Part shown: positions 22,779 through 39,792 of the stretch, in pieces
How positions within the stretch are numbered: the stretch's first letter is position 1
Layout: each line of letters starts with the position of its first letter
Assembly: GCA_963748625.1 (NCBI GenBank)
Contig: CAVVJT010000007.1
Coordinates: 800,001 to 864,000, forward strand
DNA from: an uncultured Chloroflexia bacterium
GTDB lineage: Bacteria; Chloroflexota; Limnocylindria; Limnocylindrales; CSP1-4
Direction: 5' to 3'
Length of the DNA stretch: 64,000 bases
Notes under the pieces: model-generated
The model's input: only the letters and a program-made list of their open reading frames with translations
Told to the model about the DNA's origin: nothing
The model's database searches: none
Program-made: the position numbers and the translations under genes

Positions 22779-22824
22779 TGGTCGGGGCGAGGGGGATCGA
22801 CCCGACGGAACCTACCTCATCGAC
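22779..22824 (-). repeat. att-like copy of the tRNA-Pro 3' end (distal boundary of the hotspot)
   Basis: TGGTCGGGGCGAG matches 36701-36713, followed by GAACCTACCTCATCGAC shared with the 35879 copy. Confidence 0.85.
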
Positions 22825-28015: not shown

Positions 28016-28473
<458 letters not shown>

Positions 28474-28504
28474 GGCATGGCCGATGATCCCGCCCACTGC
28501 CCGG

Positions 28505-28537
28505 CAACAAAGAGCCGGACCGCGGTGGTCCGGCTCT
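28505..28537 (-). terminator. Intrinsic terminator downstream of the att copy
   Basis: AGAGCCGGACC-accgc-GGTCCGGCTCT followed by TTGTT on the minus strand. Confidence 0.75.
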
Positions 28538-28548
28538 GGTGTGGAGAC

Positions 28549-28564
28549 TGGTCGGGGCGAGAGG
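28549..28564 (-). repeat. att-like copy of the tRNA-Pro 3' end
   Basis: TGGTCGGGGCGAGAGG, 16/16 match to 36701-36716. Confidence 0.9.
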
Positions 28565-28659
28565 GATAGCCCCTCCCTAACTCAGCGATCGCTCAGCTTC
28601 CTGATGGTCAACGCCACGCCGCGGCAGCCGCCGGTGCCCCTCGAGCTGGTCCGCAGCGC

Positions 28660-28905
28660 ATGACGCGACGGTCGTCCCGCTCCGCCGAGCGCGCCACCGA
28701 CCGCGAGGTCGGGGTGGTCGCGGCCGTCCTGGTCGCCGGGTCGGAGAAGGCCGCCGCCCACCGCCTCGGCCTGTCGCCCTCGACGGTGAAGCACCACCTG
28801 GCGAATGCGCGGTCCAAGGTGGGGGCGACGACGACGGCGCAGCTGGTGTGGATCCTCGCTCCTCGGTTGCCCGAGCCGGAGGGCATGGCCCAAACGGACG
28901 AATGA
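28660..28905 (+). CDS. Small stand-alone LuxR/sigma4-type HTH protein (full-length copy 1)
   Basis: TDREVGVVAAV..AGSEKAAAHRLGLSPSTVKHHLANARSKVG. Confidence 0.8.
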   Translation: MTRRSSRSAERATDREVGVVAAVLVAGSEKAAAHRLGLSPSTVKHHLANARSKVGATTTAQLVWILAPRLPEPEGMAQTDE

Positions 28906-29066
28906 CGGCAGCTCGAGGCGCGGTCGCGCTATCGGGACCGCGCGAACCAGTCGTAGATCGACGCGGGGCCGTTGTAGACGCCGCCAGCCCGAGTCCGCTG
29001 ACGGGTGACTTCTCGAGACCGGCGGCAAGAGTCGCTCAACTGTTGGTGACCCGTGTACAGGGTCCG

Positions 29067-29094
29067 TTGACGCTCAGACTCGCAAGAGTACAAT
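29067..29094 (+). promoter_or_regulatory. Putative sigma-70 promoter of cargo gene 1
   Basis: TTGACG-16 nt-TACAAT. Confidence 0.55.
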
Positions 29095-29237
29095 GACCTG
29101 TATTCAACGGTCCATTTGGACCGTTCGCTGTCTCGAGCCCCGAGCGAGGTGCGAGGGCGATGCGTCGACTCCTGATTTCGCCCGTCGTCATGGCCTAGGC
29201 CCCCGCGAGAGGACCGCGAGAGAAAGGGTCAGTGCTC

Positions 29238-30017
29238 ATGGAGAAGGCAATCCGGTTCAGGATTTTGGGATCCCTCGCCGTTGCGGCGGCGCTGGCGCTC
29301 CCAACTGGACCGGCGATGGCTGCCGAGTCCAGCACGGCGCAGGCGTACACGTGCACCGGTGGCGACATCCCGTCAGGCAACTACCGCAGCATCACGGTCA
29401 CGGGCCCCTGCTCCGTACCGGCCGATGCCGTGATCAGCGTAGTCGGGAACGTGAACGTCAGGGCCGGTGCCCAACTAGACGCGCAAAGCGCGCCCTCGGC
29501 GATCACCGTCGGACGCAACGTCACCGCGGCTGCGGGCTCGCTGCTCGGCCTGGGCTGCCAGCCGCCCTCGCTCACCGGAAACTCGGCACATGAGTGTGCC
29601 GTCGATCCGGAAGGACACTCCACCATCATCGTCAACGGAAACGTCACGGCAACCGACGCCGCTGCCGTTCTGTTGAACGGGATTACGGTCGAGGGGAACG
29701 TCACCCTGATCGGGGGAGGCTCGGCGATCCCCTGGTCGATCAAGAACAACACGATCGACCGCAACCTCACGGTGGGGGGGCAGACGACCGATTGGCTCGG
29801 CGTGCTCTTCAACACGATCGGTGGGAACGCGACGTTGATCGGCGTGAAGGTGACCGACGTTCACCCGGGCGCACCCGGCGTCTACATCGTTCGCAACACG
29901 ATCGGGCGGAACCTCATCTGCTTGGGATTGACCCCGGGAGTATCCGGAGGTTTCGTCCCCGGCAGCGTCAACGTCGTCGGCCGTCACGCGATCGGTCAGT
30001 GCGCATCCCTGGTCTGA
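29238..30017 (+). CDS. Secreted beta-solenoid-like hypothetical protein
   Basis: Signal peptide; recurring V.GNV / I.RNL turns; several Cys. Confidence 0.75.
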   Translation: MEKAIRFRILGSLAVAAALALPTGPAMAAESSTAQAYTCTGGDIPSGNYRSITVTGPCSVPADAVISVVGNVNVRAGAQLDAQSAPSAITVGRNVTAAAGSLLGLGCQPPSLTGNSAHECAVDPEGHSTIIVNGNVTATDAAAVLLNGITVEGNVTLIGGGSAIPWSIKNNTIDRNLTVGGQTTDWLGVLFNTIGGNATLIGVKVTDVHPGAPGVYIVRNTIGRNLICLGLTPGVSGGFVPGSVNVVGRHAIGQCASLV

Positions 30018-30106
30018 CCTCGTTGGTCTGACCTCGTTCGGGCCATGTCCGTCCGCCATCCTCTGGGCCCCCAGCGTGTGGCGGACGGCGCCCGGCCCCC
30101 AACCGG

Positions 30107-30234
30107 CCTCGACCGTGAAGCACCACCTGGCGAACGCGCGGTCCAAGGTGGGCGCGGAGACGACGGCGCAGCCGGTGTGGATCCTGGCGCCGCGGCTGCC
30201 CGAGCCCGAGGGTGTGGCCGAAGCGGACGAGTAG
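30107..30234 (+). pseudogene. 5'-truncated HTH copy 2
   Basis: STVKHHLANARSKVGAETTAQPVWILAPRLPEPEGVAEADE*. Confidence 0.85.
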
Positions 30235-30501
30235 CAGCCTCCTTGACGCAGTCGTTGGGCTCCTGGTTTGGACCTCCACTATCGGACGTGGGCGGTGGTG
30301 ACTCCGCCGCCGGGAGTTCCGCCTCAGCGCGAGACGCGTCGCTGGCCACGCAGGCCGGTCGTGGCTCCGACCCACGGCCCCCGAGTACTTCGCCTATGGC
30401 GATCTTCGCTTGGGATTACGCGTCCACTTGGTCGACCTGGTTGCCGCAATGGGTCAATTGCACAGCTGACGCGATGGGACGATAGTTGGCGCCCGGCCTG
30501 C

Positions 30502-31002
30502 ATGGTCATTGGAAGGAGCGTCCCGACAGTGTTCAAGATCAGCCAGGGCATGGAGATCGAGCGGCCCGCGGCGGTCGTGTGGCCGTACCTCGCCGCTCTC
30601 GAGCAGGTGCCCCTATGGGAGCACGGCATCCTGGACGTCAAGCAGATCGACCAGGGACCCCTCTTCGTCGGGATGCGGTTCACGGCCGGGCGGGTCTACG
30701 CAGGCAAGGCCACGCACCTCGATGGCGACGTTCGGATCGTCGAGGAAGGGCACTTCCTGACCGCGGCCCTCCGGGGTGGTCCTCACGTCGAGTCGATCGT
30801 GACCTATACGGTTGACCCTGTCGGGGAGGAGCGGTGCCGGGTCACCTACAGCGCGACGGGCCGCATGCGGTTCCCGCTGAATCTGCTGGACCCGATCTTC
30901 CCCGCGGTCGGTCGCGCAGAGACTCGCAAGAACCTCGCCCGGTTGCGCCGCCGGATCCTGGCCGGCGTCCCGGCGACCTCGAACACGCCGACGCCCGACT
31001 AG
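30502..31002 (+). CDS. SRPBCC/polyketide cyclase family protein
   Basis: EIERPAAVVWPYL.....P.W; C-terminal helix NLARLR. Confidence 0.75.
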   Translation: MVIGRSVPTVFKISQGMEIERPAAVVWPYLAALEQVPLWEHGILDVKQIDQGPLFVGMRFTAGRVYAGKATHLDGDVRIVEEGHFLTAALRGGPHVESIVTYTVDPVGEERCRVTYSATGRMRFPLNLLDPIFPAVGRAETRKNLARLRRRILAGVPATSNTPTPD

Positions 31003-31006
31003 GGGA

Positions 31007-31177
31007 CGCCGGGTCGGAGAAGGCCGCGGCCCACCGCCTGGGCTTGTCGCACTCGACCGTGAAGCACCACCTGCGAATGCGCGGTCCAAGGTGGGCGCAG
31101 CCACGACGGCGCAACTGGTGTGGATCCTCGCCCCGCGCCTGCCCGAGCCCGAGGGCGTGGTCCAGACGGACGACTAA
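31007..31177 (+). pseudogene. 5'-truncated HTH copy 3 (1-bp deletion)
   Basis: AGSEKAAAHRLGLSHSTVKHHL/..NARSKVGAATTAQLVWILAPRLPEPEGVVQTDD*. Confidence 0.85.
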
Positions 31178-31394
31178 CGAGCGTCCGCCGGGTATCGTCA
31201 GCCCATGGCTCGATGACCGTCGTGTGCCATCGCACGGTGCTGTCGGGCGCGTGCGCCGAGCGATGCACAGCCACGTCAAGAGCGGCAGAAACGACCGCAG
31301 ATCGAGTCGCGCCCCGGAGATGCGCCCGCGACGCTCGCGGCTTACGCTGCCTTTGTGCTGTGTGGCACTGGGGTGCGGAGGGAGGCAAGGACAG

Positions 31395-32372
31395 ATGTTT
31401 CGGACGCGTCTCACGGAACTCGTCGGATGCACACTGCCCATCCAGCAGGCTCCGATGGGCACGGTCTCCTCGCCGCGGCTCGCGGTCGCCGTCGCCGAGG
31501 CCGGCGGCATCGGCTCGATCAACACCCTCGCGATGTCGCGGGAGACCCTTCGGCGACGCCTGGACGAGATGCGTGAGCAGACCGATGGTGTGCTCGCGGT
31601 CAGCTTCCTCACCAACGACATTGATATCGACGCCGTCGCGGATGGCGCAGCGCGCGCGCGAATCATCGACTTCTTCTGGAGCGATCCTCGGCCTGATCTC
31701 GTCGACATCGCCCACCGGGGTGGAGCGCTGGTCAACTGGCAGGTCGGATCGAGGGAGGAGGCGCTCGCGGCGGTTCGAGCCGGCGCCGACATCGTCTGCG
31801 TTCAGGGTGTCGAGGCCGGCGGGCACTGCCGCGGCGACAGCCCGCTGCTGCCGCTGCTCTGCGAAGTGCTGGACGCCGTCGATGTGCCCGTCCTTGCCGC
31901 GGGCGGTATCGCCGATGCCCGCGGCGTCGCTGCCGCTATCGCTGTGGGGGCATCGGGTGTGCGGATGGGCACTCAATTCATTGCCACGGAAGAATCAGCA
32001 GCGCATGCGGACTACAAGGCAGCGGTCGTCGCAGCGGGTGCCAACAGCACGCGGATCACCGACGCGTTCAACAACTGTCCGTTGTGTGCGTCGGCGCCGC
32101 GGGCGCGCGTCCTCGTCTCGGCGATCGACGCTGTGGAAGCGATCGACGTCGGCGTGGTCGGGACGATGCAGGGCGTCGACGGGGAGTTGCTACCCGTGCC
32201 GCGCCGCTCCTGGGTGCCGCCAACGGAAGACGTGAGCGGACACATCGATGCCATGGCCATGTATGCGGGCGAATCCGTCGTCCTCGTCAACGACATCGTG
32301 CCGGCCGCGCAGCTTGCGCGTTCGCTCGCCGAAGGCGCCGAGGGCCTGCTCAGGCAGGCGTGCCCGAGTTGA
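31395..32372 (+). CDS. Nitronate monooxygenase family flavoprotein
   Basis: PIQQAPMG, QGVEAGGH, VLAAGGIAD, GVRMGTQF.ATEES. Confidence 0.9.
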   Translation: MFRTRLTELVGCTLPIQQAPMGTVSSPRLAVAVAEAGGIGSINTLAMSRETLRRRLDEMREQTDGVLAVSFLTNDIDIDAVADGAARARIIDFFWSDPRPDLVDIAHRGGALVNWQVGSREEALAAVRAGADIVCVQGVEAGGHCRGDSPLLPLLCEVLDAVDVPVLAAGGIADARGVAAAIAVGASGVRMGTQFIATEESAAHADYKAAVVAAGANSTRITDAFNNCPLCASAPRARVLVSAIDAVEAIDVGVVGTMQGVDGELLPVPRRSWVPPTEDVSGHIDAMAMYAGESVVLVNDIVPAAQLARSLAEGAEGLLRQACPS

Positions 32373-32492
32373 CCTTCGGATCGCCGTCGGAAGTAGCGCC
32401 GACCGGCCGCTCCTTGTTCTCTCTCGGCTCCGCTTCTGCTCGAGATCGCCCCGACGGGGCCGCAGCGGTTGATCGGCGCCGGCGCAAGGACC

Positions 32493-32580
32493 TCACGTCG
32501 CCTCCCGGGCGAAACGCAACATCACAGCGGCGATCCACCCGTAGGCAAGCACGATGGCGACGCGTTGCAGCAGCCCCGCG
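32493..32580 (-). pseudogene. 3' fragment of a membrane protein gene (DUF998-like end)
   Basis: AGLLQRVAIVLAYGWIAAVMLRFAREAT* with no upstream body. Confidence 0.35.
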
Positions 32581-32682
32581 CGCCGTCGAACCGGGTGCAC
32601 GGCGGCGGATCCCCGGTTCCCGTCGTGCTAGCCCCTAGAGGAACCGTTGGCTCAGAGCCTGGACTGAGCCCCCGGCGCCGAG

Positions 32683-32708
32683 AGGGCATGGCCCAAACGG
32701 CCGAATAG
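32683..32708 (+). repeat. HTH copy 4, last codons only
   Basis: GAGGGCATGGCCCAAACGGCCGAATAG versus copy 1 GAGGGCATGGCCCAAACGGACGAATGA. Confidence 0.7.
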
Positions 32709-32870
32709 CCACTGCGGCCCGGCCCCCGCACGCTTGGGGGCATGACGGCGCGCTGGTCCGATCCACACCGGCTCCCGGGCCCCCCGGCCTGTTGCGACCC
32801 CGGGTACGCCCGCGCCGTCACCCCCGCGGGGGGGCGAGGAATGCGAGAGCGAGCTCCACCTCGCTCATCG

Positions 32871-33548
32871 GGTCGGCAGGCAACGGCAAGGGCGTCGTGC
32901 CCGAGGCCGTGATCGCCGCCTCGATCGCGCTCGATGCCCTGCTGCTGCGCGGCGACCTCGCCGAGCTTCGGGCCGCCGGGATCCGGTTCCGCTCCGGCAC
33001 CGAGAGCCGCGATCACCCGCGAGCTCCGGGCGATCCCGATCGATGCGCACCACCTCATCGACCACCACTACATCGCCGGGACGGCTCAAGCCCTCCTGCT
33101 GGCGGCCCTGGGCGGACGACCCGGCGGGCTTCCCGCAGGCCCGCTACCTCGCCGCCCTCGCACCAGCGCCGCCCGCTCCGGAGGAGACCGTGAACAGCTA
33201 CCCCGTGCCCAAGGTGCCCTCGGTCGCCACCGTGCCCGCGGGCACCTGGCTGTACGCGACGTCTGCGCTCGAACCCTCGCCCGACAACATCCGGTCGACC
33301 CGGGGCGCGACATGCCCTACCTCGGCCAGCCGGCGAGCACGGTCCGCATCGTCGAGTACGTCGATGCGAAGGGCGTCCACCAGGGTCGCGCGATGTTCGC
33401 GAAGGCGACCGAGGTCACCACCATCCGCCCGGCACCCGACCTCACGCCGTTCAGCCAGGCGCAGCTCGACGCTGCCGAGAAGCTCGCGGCCGCGGCGGTC
33501 AAGGCGGCCGCCGACCGCGCGGCCGCCGCGTACGGAGCGTGCACGTGA
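32871..33548 (+). pseudogene. Headless, frameshifted phage endolysin-like gene
   Basis: Coding-like segments over several frames (..LIDHHYIAG/LKPSCWRPW..) resembling an amidase C-terminal half; stop overlaps the holin-like start. Confidence 0.45.
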
Positions 33549-33736
33549 TGGATAGCCAGCCAGGCTCGATCTGGGGCCGCGAACCTGCGATGGTGCTCGC
33601 GCTTGTCCAGGCGGTCATCGCCCTGGTCGTCGCGTTCGGCCTCAGCCTCGCATCCGATCAGATCGGCGCGATCCTCGCCGTCACCGCGGTGATCCTCGGA
33701 CTCATCACGCGCAGCCGAGTGAGCCCGGCGTCGTGA
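33548..33736 (+). CDS. Small two-TM holin-like protein
   Basis: REPAMVLALVQAVIAL..AFGLSL..DQIGAI...R.RVSP, resembling actinophage holins. Confidence 0.65.
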   Translation: MDSQPGSIWGREPAMVLALVQAVIALVVAFGLSLASDQIGAILAVTAVILGLITRSRVSPAS

Positions 33737-33999
33737 GGGACGGGTACCTGCGCGGCTCGATCCCACGGACGCCGACGGCACGGCAGGTCGACGTCCTGGC
33801 CGCCTTCGTCGCCAGCGGCGGTTCCGTCGCGGATGCGGCCGCGCGGGTCGGCGTCCGGCCCAGCACCGCGAAGCGCCACCTCGCCGATCTGCGGGCCCGG
33901 TCGGGCCTCACGACCGAGCAACTGATCTACCGGGGGCGGGCGGAGGGGTGGCTGGTGGTCGCGAGCCTGGAACCAACGCTGGCCTTCGATCACCAGTGA
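33733..33999 (+). CDS. Second small stand-alone LuxR-type HTH protein
   Basis: PTARQVDVLAAF...SVADAAARVGVRPSTAKRHLADLR; GTGA overlap. Confidence 0.75.
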   Translation: MRDGYLRGSIPRTPTARQVDVLAAFVASGGSVADAAARVGVRPSTAKRHLADLRARSGLTTEQLIYRGRAEGWLVVASLEPTLAFDHQ

Positions 34000-35780: not shown

Positions 35781-35878
35781 CACCCGAGGGTCCCGCCCGG
35801 CGCCGGACCGACCCGATCGCCGCAGAGTTGGGACGCGGCCTTCGGGGCTGGGGACCAGCCAATCTCGATTGGTCAGCC

Positions 35879-35924
35879 TGGTCGGGGCGAGAGGGCTTGA
35901 CCCCGCAGAACCTACCTCATCGAC
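35879..35924 (-). repeat. att-like copy of the tRNA-Pro 3' end
   Basis: 16/16 core match plus GAACCTACCTCATCGAC shared with the 22779 copy. Confidence 0.9.
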
Positions 35925-35930
35925 TTGGGC

Positions 35931-36272
35931 TCAGCCGGAGGCGAGGAGTTCGTCCACCTCGCGACGCAGGTCCCCGAGCCGGGTGCCGACCATATCCCAC
36001 ACCAGCATGTCGTCGACGCCGGCGTAGCCGTGGATCAGGATGTTGCGGAACGCGATGATGCGCCGATGGTCGCTGATCCGGCCGGCGGTCTCCGGGTCGA
36101 CCTTCGCCAGCTGGCCGAGCGCCTCGCCGATGACCTCGAACTGGCGCTCGACCGCGGACCGCACCATCGCATCGGCGGCGTACGTGTCGTAGTCCAGGCC
36201 GGTGGTGAAGTCCGCGATCAGCGCGGCGGCCTGCCGCATGTCATAGAGGTAGGCCTTTGCCTCACGCGGCAT
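35931..36272 (-). CDS. HEPN (DUF86/HepT-like) RNase toxin
   Basis: AVERQFEVIGEA, RNILIH (Rx4H) followed by GY. Confidence 0.9.
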   Translation of the reverse strand: MPREAKAYLYDMRQAAALIADFTTGLDYDTYAADAMVRSAVERQFEVIGEALGQLAKVDPETAGRISDHRRIIAFRNILIHGYAGVDDMLVWDMVGTRLGDLRREVDELLASG

Positions 36273-36570
36273 AGAGCAGCGTCCTTGTCCGCTCGATATC
36301 GGCCTTGATGTACGGGTTGCGGACGGCCGAGGAGGCCACGAGGTCAACCTGGCGGCCGAAGAGAGCCTCAAGCGCTTCGCGGAGGCCAAAGTAGGCGTCC
36401 GCGTACCCGCCCACCGGCAGCGCCTCGAACTCGACGAGCAGATCGACGTCGCTCCGTTCGGGATCGAAGTCCTCTCGGGCGGCCGACCCGAACACGAACA
36501 AGCTGTGCACGCGGTACCGTCGGCACAGATCCTCGAGTGCGGCACGGTGGTCGTCGATAAACGGGCTCAT
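36262..36570 (-). CDS. Minimal nucleotidyltransferase (MNT) antitoxin
   Basis: [20 protein letters not shown] (GSx10DxD-type motif). Confidence 0.9.
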
Positions 36571-36651
36571 GTCGGTGGCTCCTCGCTCGAAGAGTACCCG
36601 AGGCCGGATCCCACGACGACGGCTGGCGATGCGCGGCAGCGAGACACGAAG

Positions 36652-36678
36652 GAGCCCTCCTCGCCACGAGAAGGGCTC
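36652..36678 (-). terminator. Hairpin downstream of the tRNA
   Basis: GAGCCCTcCTCG / CGAGaAGGGCTC inverted repeat. Confidence 0.5.
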
Positions 36679-36700
36679 TGGACCGGATGACAGCTGGATC

Positions 36701-36777
<77 letters not shown>

Positions 36778-36866
36778 ACCGAAAGTGCCCGCTGAGGGGC
36801 CGGGGAATGATAGCGCATGCTGCCTCGACCATCGAGCGGGCGGCCGGATGGCACCAACCTTGGCGC

Positions 36867-36936
36867 CCGGACGCGACCCGCCTAGGCCCCGGACGCGACC
36901 CGCCTGGTCCCCGGGCGCGACCCGCCTAGGCCCCGG
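36867..36936. repeat. About 22 bp tandem repeat x3 (CCGGACGCGACCCGCCTAGGCC)
   Basis: Read directly from the sequence. Confidence 0.75.
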
Positions 36937-39252: not shown

Positions 39253-39792
39253 ATGACCTCCAACATGGCCCTCCGCTGCCCCAAGTGCGCAGGCGAGATG
39301 GCCTCGTACGAACGCAGCGGCATCCACGTGGAGCAGTGCCGCGAGTGCCGCGGGATCTTCCTCGACCGCGGCGAGCTCGAGCGCCTCGTCGATGCCGAGG
39401 GCGGCGCCTGGGTCGGGCCCCAGCCCGGCGTGCCGGCCGGAGCGCGGCATGCTGCGCCCATGCCGGTGCCGCCGGCGGGCTACCCGATGCCGCATGCGGG
39501 CTATCCGGGACCACAGGCGGGCTATCCGGGACCACAGGCGGGCTATCCGGGACCACAGGCGGGCTATCCGGGACCACAGGCGGGCTATCCGGGACCACAG
39601 GCGGGGTATCCGGGACCACAGGCGGGGTATCCGGGACCACAGGCGGGGTATCCGCCGCAGCCCCGCTCGGACTGGGACTCCGACGACGACGACCGTGACG
39701 ATCGCCGGGGGTTCGATCCTCGTAGCTCGTCCGGGCGACCGTCAAAGAAGCGGTCACTCTTCAGCGACCTGCTCGAGGGTCTCGGCGACTGA
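39253..39792 (+). CDS. zf-TFIIB zinc-ribbon protein with (AGYPGPQ)7 tract
   Basis: CPKC...CRECRGIFLDRGELE; KKRSLFSDLL end; AAGGAG RBS. Confidence 0.85.
   Translation: MTSNMALRCPKCAGEMASYERSGIHVEQCRECRGIFLDRGELERLVDAEGGAWVGPQPGVPAGARHAAPMPVPPAGYPMPHAGYPGPQAGYPGPQAGYPGPQAGYPGPQAGYPGPQAGYPGPQAGYPGPQAGYPPQPRSDWDSDDDDRDDRRGFDPRSSSGRPSKKRSLFSDLLEGLGD
39496..39654 (+). repeat. 21 bp coding tandem repeat x7 plus a partial unit
   Basis: GCGGG(C/G)TATCCGGGACCACAG. Confidence 0.95.

Follow-up and report, generated by a model that had tools for sequence, protein, structure and literature searches.

The window analyzed here is a stretch of 64,000 nucleotides (nt) from an uncultured Chloroflexia bacterium of the order Limnocylindrales (assembly GCA_963748625.1, contig CAVVJT010000007.1, positions 800,001–864,000 of the forward strand), whose genome is referred to below as G000. 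It carries an array of four copies of a small helix-turn-helix (HTH) regulator gene, HTH1, the first of which is complete and the other three truncated at the 5′ side, each being followed by different DNA. We propose, with moderate confidence, that this array is a fossil left by integrative elements that accumulated in tandem, and subsequently decayed, at the 3′ end of a tRNA-Pro(cgg) gene present in the same window.

HTH1 Copies in the Window

The complete gene is 246 nt long and was located at positions 28660–28905 of the + strand, on which a repeat finder, a sequence alignment and a genome-wide search (4.6 Mb) gave concordant results. The product of 81 amino acids (aa) matched Pfam GerE (PF00196) over residues 13–63 (E 4.9e-7, 29.7 bits for a cut-off of 23.5) and phrog_3282 (E 1.1e-7). 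The GerE cut-off was also passed by HTH1 in relatives, and these profile matches make HTH1 a predicted member of the LuxR/GerE helix-turn-helix regulator family. Copy 2 (30104–30234, + strand), found by the same three approaches and by nhmmer, was clipped at nt 116–119 or so of the gene: the segment 30104–30230 was 87% identical to HTH1 nt 116–242 (nt 119–245 according to nhmmer). Copy 3 (31004–31177, + strand) begins 1 nt past the stop codon of the second cargo gene and was clipped at approximately nt 72, with 88% identity between 31004–31173 and nt 72–242 (nt 72–245 according to nhmmer). One base was absent after CACCT near position 31060, which left this copy frameshifted as well as clipped. 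The last copy is a stub of seven codons and a stop (32677–32708, + strand), joined to a conserved block that lies ahead of lysis genes; its segment 32677–32706 was 93% identical to nt 216–244, with a genome-wide E-value of 1.5e-4. Copies 2 and 3 are dead, because the translation of the former has lost the first helix of the HTH motif and the latter is frameshifted.

All four copies are on the + strand and end with an in-frame stop codon at a common position (TGA at 28903–28905, TAG at 30232–30234, TAA at 31175–31177 and TAG at 32706–32708), with unrelated DNA beyond each. A preliminary description of the window, made from its letters and open reading frames (ORFs), had reported the full 81-aa gene, three diverged + strand copies ending at the same stop position and the variation in stop codons, and on these points the two accounts agree; the frameshift of copy 3 is an addition. 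A single further match to HTH1, a weak one (73%), was present in the rest of the 4.6-Mb genome, on contig C3.

The differences among the copies at the three codon positions amounted to 6/2/9, 9/7/18 and 7/9/17, counts that are partly inflated by the frameshifted stretch and that bear out the earlier remark on the abundance of third-position differences. The pairwise synonymous divergence (dS) was 0.4–0.5, and the ratio of nonsynonymous to synonymous divergence (dN/dS) was 0.13–0.24, as expected under purifying selection. Copy 2 had 95%, 93% and 92% identity with HTH1 copies from three further genomes, and only 87% with copy 1. Taken together, the dS and dN/dS values and the affinity of copy 2 to other genomes show that the copies evolved apart as working genes, in separate elements or lineages, and were joined later. 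The copies had indeed been taken at the outset for alleles from different related elements. A local duplication of HTH1 was rejected on the allele comparison.

The tRNA-Pro Core and the Limits of the Element

The tRNA-Pro(cgg) gene (36701–36777, − strand) was the only RNA gene detected in the window by Rfam, at gathering thresholds, and by ARAGORN. Its 3′ end is a 16-nt segment, TGGTCGGGGCGAGAGG on the + strand, hereafter called the core, which occurs at positions 22779, 28549, 35879 and 36701 and nowhere else in the genome. Direct repeats of the 3′ end of the target gene thus delimit units in the window, as expected under tandem accretion.

The core at 28549–28564 (+ strand) ends 95 nt upstream of HTH1, and the homology of many relatives to the window starts at 28544–28549. 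The intervening segment, the tail (28565–28659, + strand), is a diverged tRNA-Pro-like sequence and also a remnant of the coding sequence for the C-terminus of a serine recombinase (GRGERDSP motif, ORF 28484–28663); in relatives, tblastn matches to residues 472–497 of the integrase were situated just upstream of HTH1. On the other side, the core at 35879–35894 (+ strand) is preceded by a right arm (35829–35878, + strand) consisting of the final ~17 codons of a gene for a serine recombinase (..WDAAFGAGDQPISIGQPG..), which was 89% identical to L043 70–5. This arm has the same left-flank class as L043:20 and L076:6780, its frame having been read by eye against the recombinase of L037. We read the segment 28549–35894 as one decayed element that has kept both of its att-type ends, with the HTH1 array at its left end. 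The preservation of the tail and of the ~50-nt recombinase arm is in line with accretion, where decayed members keep their ends. The outermost core (22779–22794, + strand; TGGTCGGGGCGAG(A/G)GG) is an att-type repeat, and the ~30 nt that follow it resemble those that follow the core at 35879 (87% over 47 nt).

The interval between the cores at 35879 and 36701 (35879–36716) forms a 0.8-kb unit containing nothing but a HepT/MNT toxin–antitoxin pair (35934–36570, − strand; Pfam HepT-like E 1.7e-19, NTP_transf_2 E 1.8e-13). Similar core-to-core units of 0.8–2.7 kb were observed in the related loci L047, L071, L072, L076 and L077.

HTH1 and Core Loss in Related Genomes

Of 36 sister genomes belonging to the genus, 31 had matches to HTH1, with up to 21 per genome; there were none in 24 genomes of the neighboring family. 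A total of 46 loci were fetched, on which HTH1 was mapped with an nhmmer profile built from nine full genes (E < 1e-6), fragment starts being accurate to a few bases only; other genes were called by a simple rule based on the GC content at third codon positions. Among the resulting 74 copies, 20 were intact at both ends, 40 were clipped at the 5′ end only, 3 at the 3′ end only and 11 at both, and the starts of the 5′-clipped copies were spread over nt 7–148. The copies formed same-strand runs of up to seven, and both strands were used in 3 of 27 sources.

When the 600 nt past 60 copies with an intact 3′ end were compared, in the window and the 46 loci, they fell into 51 unrelated clusters, the largest with three members. 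The variability of the DNA past the HTH stop, noticed initially in the window, is thus a property of the genus, and a constant downstream gene was looked for among these homologues and not found. The first downstream genes were mostly of unknown function; the recognizable ones encoded an ECF sigma factor, an alpha/beta hydrolase, a luciferase-like monooxygenase, and GntR, HD-GerE or similar proteins.

There were 41 consecutive same-strand HTH1 pairs no more than 8 kb apart. A core was kept between the two copies in six of them, and the downstream copy then started at nt 1 in five cases and at nt 7 in one. The core was absent from the other 35, in which the downstream copy was clipped in 32 cases, the remaining three being cut inside the tail (Fisher p 4e-4 for the link between core loss and clipping, kin not being independent of one another). 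One array, in L043, combined a junction that was still whole (cargo, arm, core, tail, full HTH1) with another that was clipped. In two instances, the same allele with the same cargo was full in one genome and clipped in another (L055 versus L037, 92.8% over 694 nt; L036:12185 versus L073:3955). Upstream of three fragments, the stub, the spacer and the first 15–50 nt of the small lysis gene described below were fused to HTH1 at nt 67–76, with a CCGGGT microhomology, read by eye, at one of these junctions.

Element Families at the tRNA-Pro Core

Several putative families of integrative elements in the genus were shown by sequence comparison to share the 16-nt core identical to the tRNA 3′ end. 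In the family that we label E2, the core is followed by a tail of ~95 nt, HTH1, variable cargo, a small gene, an amidase endolysin, a holin and a second HTH gene, HTH2; some E2 loci possess in addition an HNH gene, a small terminase gene and a large serine recombinase gene whose reading frame extends into the core. The backbone read core, tail, HTH1, variable DNA, HTH1 stub, 33-nt spacer, small gene, Amidase_2 endolysin, holin and HTH2, with or without the HNH gene, in at least nine loci; at least nine loci had HTH2 a few kilobases downstream of HTH1. E2 derivatives with internal deletions were reduced to the core, the tail, HTH1, a cargo of one or two genes and a right arm of 50–108 nt. In L095, the full HTH1 was directly joined to the spacer and small gene, with no cargo, and in L037 a small terminase gene and a serine recombinase gene separated two tandem elements of the E2 type. 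Capsid and tail genes were not seen in the few loci examined (e.g., L055:1201–11752 and L037:7624–13981, with endolysin, holin, HNH nuclease, small terminase and serine recombinase), and on this small sample the family therefore looks defective or satellite-like. The HTH1 backbone may correspond to a family of defective prophages, or to a satellite of phages, in Limnocylindrales. A tblastn search of HTH1 against 50,697 phage records gave no match.

The recombinase of the relatives is a predicted serine integrase (phrog_95, E 3.8e-36). It overlapped or abutted tRNA-Pro(cgg) in 6 of the 12 recombinase loci scanned: its frame ran into the complement of the tRNA in L085 (9006–10497), L079, L088 and L093, and abutted the tRNA gene in L080 and L090. 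Because the frame runs into the tRNA complement, the last ~25 residues would be encoded by the opposite strand of the tRNA gene and would be altered upon excision. For large serine recombinases, a tRNA 3′ end is an unusual target. Intact elements of relatives hence carry a predicted recombinase at tRNA-Pro, as accretion implies, and no homologue of this recombinase, of the relaxase-like protein, of the small terminase or of the HNH protein of relatives was found in G000.

The sequences flanking the core fell into recurring classes. To its left were the 3′ ends of at least three recombinase types, an HNH-adjacent arm of ~93 nt and a hairpin class; to its right, there were at least three classes in addition to the tRNA body and two kinds of HTH1 tail. 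At six places the HNH-adjacent arm persisted as 51–108 nt next to a core, the body of the element having disappeared at some of them, and the loci of relatives had up to four or five core copies. A single operon comprising the recombinase and HTH1 was considered and rejected: HTH1 came after the recombinase in only 1 of 17 loci, and the junction was the att core, so the two genes would be the ends of two adjacent elements, or neighbors only in the circular form.

A gene for a Replic_Relax protein formed a conserved pair with the serine recombinase gene in 11 of 17 recombinase loci (L078–L093). This pair looks like a separate integrative, perhaps mobilizable, family using the same tRNA-Pro core.

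A Model of Tandem Accretion and Decay

We propose that elements and mini-elements inserted one after the other at the tRNA-Pro core. Small deletions across a junction would subsequently have removed the arm, the core, the tail and the 5′ part of the next HTH1, fusing the neighbors and leaving a 5′-clipped HTH1 linked to its own downstream cargo. In the window, three junctions would have decayed in that manner. The 3′ ends of HTH1 would look fixed because deletions reaching the cargo or its promoter were not kept, and because the homology between elements stops at the stop codon, where the cargo starts; clipping would be one-sided because the cargo and the region upstream of it were retained. 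The array of the window would now be an immobile fossil, since its junctions have decayed, its lysis module is broken and the genome possesses no cognate recombinase. Random large deletions between full-size elements were also considered and discarded, as they would end mostly in the 1.5-kb recombinase gene and almost none do; short junctions between mini-elements remove this difficulty of the end points.

An extension of the model, which we regard as tentative and rather unlikely, is that the small units (core, tail, HTH1, one cargo, short arm) are working non-autonomous cassettes, moved in trans by co-resident serine recombinases at tRNA-Pro. If so, a soil and sediment genus of Chloroflexota would possess an integron-like capture platform made of a serine recombinase and a tRNA-derived site. 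Each cassette would bring its own regulator, and clipped arrays would be cassettes locked in by the loss of their site.

Several points weigh against accretion and decay. No step has been seen in action, the whole scheme being drawn from the comparison of assemblies that are mostly metagenome-derived; most of the genomes are metagenome bins related to one another, and the counts given above overstate the number of independent events. The copies L044:7022 and L055:8065 have the same cargo, starts 5 nt apart and different upstream DNA, a pattern that modules already clipped before they moved would explain no less well than two separate deletions. The arrival of the first cargo between HTH1 and the short stub is left unexplained by the model. 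Lastly, the products of serine recombinases, attL and attR, are normally not substrates for further integration, and repeated stacking at one core therefore requires a regenerated target.

Alternative Explanations

The alternative that survives best, although we consider it unlikely, is sequential displacement, in which an incoming linear DNA of a related element would pair by its left end with the resident HTH1 or tail, its right end joining illegitimately slightly further along, inside the resident HTH1; the incoming HTH1 and cargo would then come first, and the old 3′ part with its cargo would be pushed downstream. It accounts for the full copy at the head of the array and for the 5′-clipped copies behind it, each with its own cargo, as well as for clip points inside HTH1, near any anchor. 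Passages of PMC5361080 propose a displacement model of this kind for other arrays, namely Rhs tips and the effector–immunity arrays of the Vibrio type VI secretion system (T6SS). The relatives nearest to copy 1 over nt 1–118 (94%, 92% and 91%) were closer over nt 119–245 to copy 2 (92%, 90% and 88%) than to copy 1 (89%, 85% and 82%), as would be expected of a mosaic. This signal, however, amounts to 3–7 bases per segment, too few to carry weight, and the 3′ part of copy 1 is just the more divergent allele with respect to most relatives. Displacement also leaves unexplained why a preserved core goes with an intact next copy and why intact arm-core-tail junctions exist within arrays, and nothing is known of DNA uptake in these organisms.

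Campbell-type re-insertion appeared improbable. A circle made of a clipped HTH1, its cargo and a stub, released by recombination between two repeats, would enter another array by homologous recombination within HTH1, in the way of the translocatable units of IS26. The full copy would again come first and the clipped ones after it; L075 has two units composed of stub, spacer, start of the small gene and HTH1 from nt 67–76, and the L044:7022 and L055:8065 copies combine near-identical clip points with different upstream neighbors. The homology available is nevertheless short (100–180 nt) and 82–93% identical, a poor substrate for recombination, most clipped units were seen once, as the 51 clusters past 60 copies indicate, and the link between core loss and clipping is not predicted.

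No more probable, in our estimation, is an integron-like cassette system, in which ~22 nt at the HTH1 stop (CATGGCCCAAWCGGCC.A.TAG, with a GGCC-N5-GGCC palindrome) would be the site where a recombinase inserts cargo circles, in the manner of attI/attC in integrons. The preliminary description had viewed the HTH 3′ end in a similar way, as the repeat unit of a cassette array. These 22 nt recur on the far side of the cargo region as well as at the HTH1 stop; in the 14 loci aligned first, they marked the start of the conserved block, upstream of which the DNA was unrelated. Orphan motifs lay between cargo genes (L049:9033 and L053:11694), and the same 2.1-kb cargo ended at the motif in L045 and L053, with different DNA beyond. 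Wider sampling gave another picture. At 29 distinct block-adjacent sites, the motif was kept in 26, and many kept degenerate HTH1 further left; three stubs were 61, 62 and 97 nt long, and two sites were cut deeper than the motif. Beside the block, a single allele type of the motif was present, whereas the ends of HTH1 genes are diverse and the motif there varied like coding sequence; the last 30 nt of HTH1 had the lowest conservation in the gene at all three codon positions. Six HTH1 ends folded no better than shuffled sequences (z from −1.31 to +0.54). The orphan motif of L049 precedes a spacer similar to that of the block and resembles the leftover of a deletion, the starts of fragments are scattered as stated above, and the first cargo of the window has a promoter-like site of its own. 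The 22-nt motif was demoted as a sharp site-specific boundary because of the ragged stubs, the single allele and the poor conservation of the gene end. A better reading of the stub is that of an ancient clipped copy passed down with the lysis block, and the sharp recurring boundary is the 16-nt tRNA-Pro core upstream of HTH1. Poor conservation, the lack of a fold, the ragged inherited stub and the boundary at the core all speak against the HTH 3′ end as a recombining unit.

That the array is a chimera of separate loci joined by the assembler through repeats is very hard to credit. A run of 70 A followed by ~385 nt of almost pure A/T (28020–28474) lies 186 nt left of HTH1, and the contamination estimate of the genome is 7.74%. 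This stretch is the sole window of GC below 0.2 and the sole homopolymer of at least 25 nt in a 4.6-Mb genome of 71% GC, and because of this uniqueness it is probably an artifact of assembly or base calling, possibly a false join. It is situated left of the element and outside the array, so it casts doubt on the join further left while the array itself would be unaffected. With a length of 127–173 nt and an identity of 87–88%, the repeats are too short and too dissimilar to have misled an assembler, and same-strand arrays of the same build occur in many genomes, including the single-contig G006 and G076. A diversity-generating retroelement was dismissed, as no reverse-transcriptase family was present among the window ORFs and the differences affect all bases, mostly at third positions.

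Comparison with Known Systems

Accretion and decay is a known way for genomic islands to grow, and no new recombination system is shown here. The closest parallel is with integrative and conjugative elements, integrative and mobilizable elements and cis-mobilizable elements (ICE/IME/CIME). According to passages of PMC5704250, direct repeats of the target 3′ end separate the stacked elements, most of which are decayed, with integration genes lost and att ends kept, and newcomers enter at a resident's att site (PMC5704250, citing Pavlovic et al. 2004). The core repeats, the decayed members and the presumed entry at the att site resemble what those passages describe. The present case differs by the large serine recombinase, whose own frame enters the tRNA complement, by units as small as 0.8–2.7 kb, by the uncultured Chloroflexota host and by an extra decay step, which would erase the att site and clip the first gene of the next unit, producing an array of gene stubs.

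The organization, a full head gene followed by 5′-clipped pieces with their own variable modules, is also that of Rhs C-terminal tips, CdiA-CT orphans and T6SS arrays in the parts of PMC5361080 that bear on them, and there too the pieces resemble full modules of other strains, which speaks for transfer and against duplication. In contrast to those arrays, no toxin/immunity logic is apparent here: the cargo comprises SRPBCC, nitronate monooxygenase (NMO) and secreted-looking proteins in the window, and a sigma factor, hydrolases, a monooxygenase and many unknowns in relatives. What is conserved is a gene for an 81-aa regulator, placed at the end of an element of phage-like build, and the upstream att core explains the boundaries better than a one-sided homologous anchor would.

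With integrons, the array shares same-strand single-gene units of unrelated functions with a short recurring sequence between them. Unlike in integrons, the recurring sequence is coding, is not conserved as DNA and had no attC-like fold in six ends; at least one unit has its own promoter-like site, and the unit boundaries are ragged on one side. No match to Phage_integrase, the family expected of an IntI-type tyrosine recombinase, was obtained among the 75 window ORFs scanned.

Phage morons are unrelated accessory genes near prophage ends. The cargo genes are comparable in being single genes, at least one with a promoter-like site, placed between phage-like backbone genes (regulator, lysis) near an att site. 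They differ from morons in that several units are piled up, remnants of the flanking regulator separating them, and in that lysis, HNH and small-terminase genes were seen together with no capsid or tail genes in the examined loci. A limited literature search found no description of these elements, and a published account may exist.

One tRNA-Pro gene appears as a busy landing site common to several element families of the genus, where passenger genes are retained while the machinery that delivered them is pared down. With the stubs of each element's first gene as markers, past insertions may be counted and ordered. The predicted serine recombinase, which would target and read into a tRNA 3′ end, is of interest in the search for new integrases.

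Cargo Genes and the Broken Lysis Module

The first cargo gene (29232–30017, + strand) codes for a protein of 261 aa that has no Pfam family and whose signal-like N-terminus and internal repeats are visible in the translation and in DNA repeats only. It is preceded by a promoter-like site, TTGACG-16-TACAAT (29067–29094, + strand; 10 of 12 positions), the only one found where 0.3 were expected, the other cargo genes having none by this consensus scan. A terminator scan of the window gave one candidate for 1.8 expected. Among the matches listed (150 of 177) from 69 sister genomes, three genomes had DNA matches to cargo 1 at 67–79%, two of them at 78–79%; homology to the G025 homologue begins at 29064. 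A 14-nt sequence is duplicated in tandem at 30019–30046 (GGTCTGACCTCGTT twice), overlapping the cargo 1 stop, and a related sequence is present in the G025 homologue.

The second cargo gene (30529–31002, + strand; start codon chosen from the sequence) encodes an SRPBCC/Polyketide_cyc2 protein (E 1.3e-13 on a longer ORF, 30268–30999), with a DNA match in one genome (G024:C3, 78%) among the matches listed. The third (31395–32372, + strand) belongs to the nitronate monooxygenase family (Pfam NMO E 1.9e-48; phrog_17890) and had no DNA match among the 150 of 177 listed. The homologues of cargos 1 and 2 elsewhere were near neither HTH1 nor the core: one cargo homologue adjoined tyrosine integrases and an IS110 fragment, and another stood among ordinary-looking genes. 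No DNA match to the window cargo was found in the first 20 loci compared.

The conserved block after the stub (32709–32873, + strand) consists of the 33-nt spacer and the start of the small gene (MTARWSDP...), which is the first of the lysis module in relatives and is truncated here. Next comes an endolysin remnant devoid of its 5′ part (32874–33545, + strand), 94% and 86% identical to the endolysin regions of L037 and L051; ~0.5 kb is absent relative to L051, which leaves the module broken. The ORF of the window had no Pfam match, the relatives having Amidase_2. A holin-like membrane protein of 65 aa (33539–33736, + strand; phrog_9752 holin, E 1.9e-10) follows, and HTH2 (33733–33999, + strand), an 88-aa paralogue of HTH1 with 47% identity to its residues 13–64, closes the module. 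The SRPBCC gene, the nitronate monooxygenase and the lysis remnant had been correctly named in the preliminary description; its secreted beta-solenoid is cargo 1.

Further left in the window are MazF, PIN and AbiE genes. Three tandem 22-nt repeats (36861–36936) are located just past the 5′ side of the tRNA-Pro gene. At least eight tandem 21-nt repeats (GGCTATCCGGGACCACAGGCG-like) occupy positions 39442–39675, just upstream of a Peptidase_M50 gene, and one of their frames would encode a repeat rich in proline, glycine and tyrosine.

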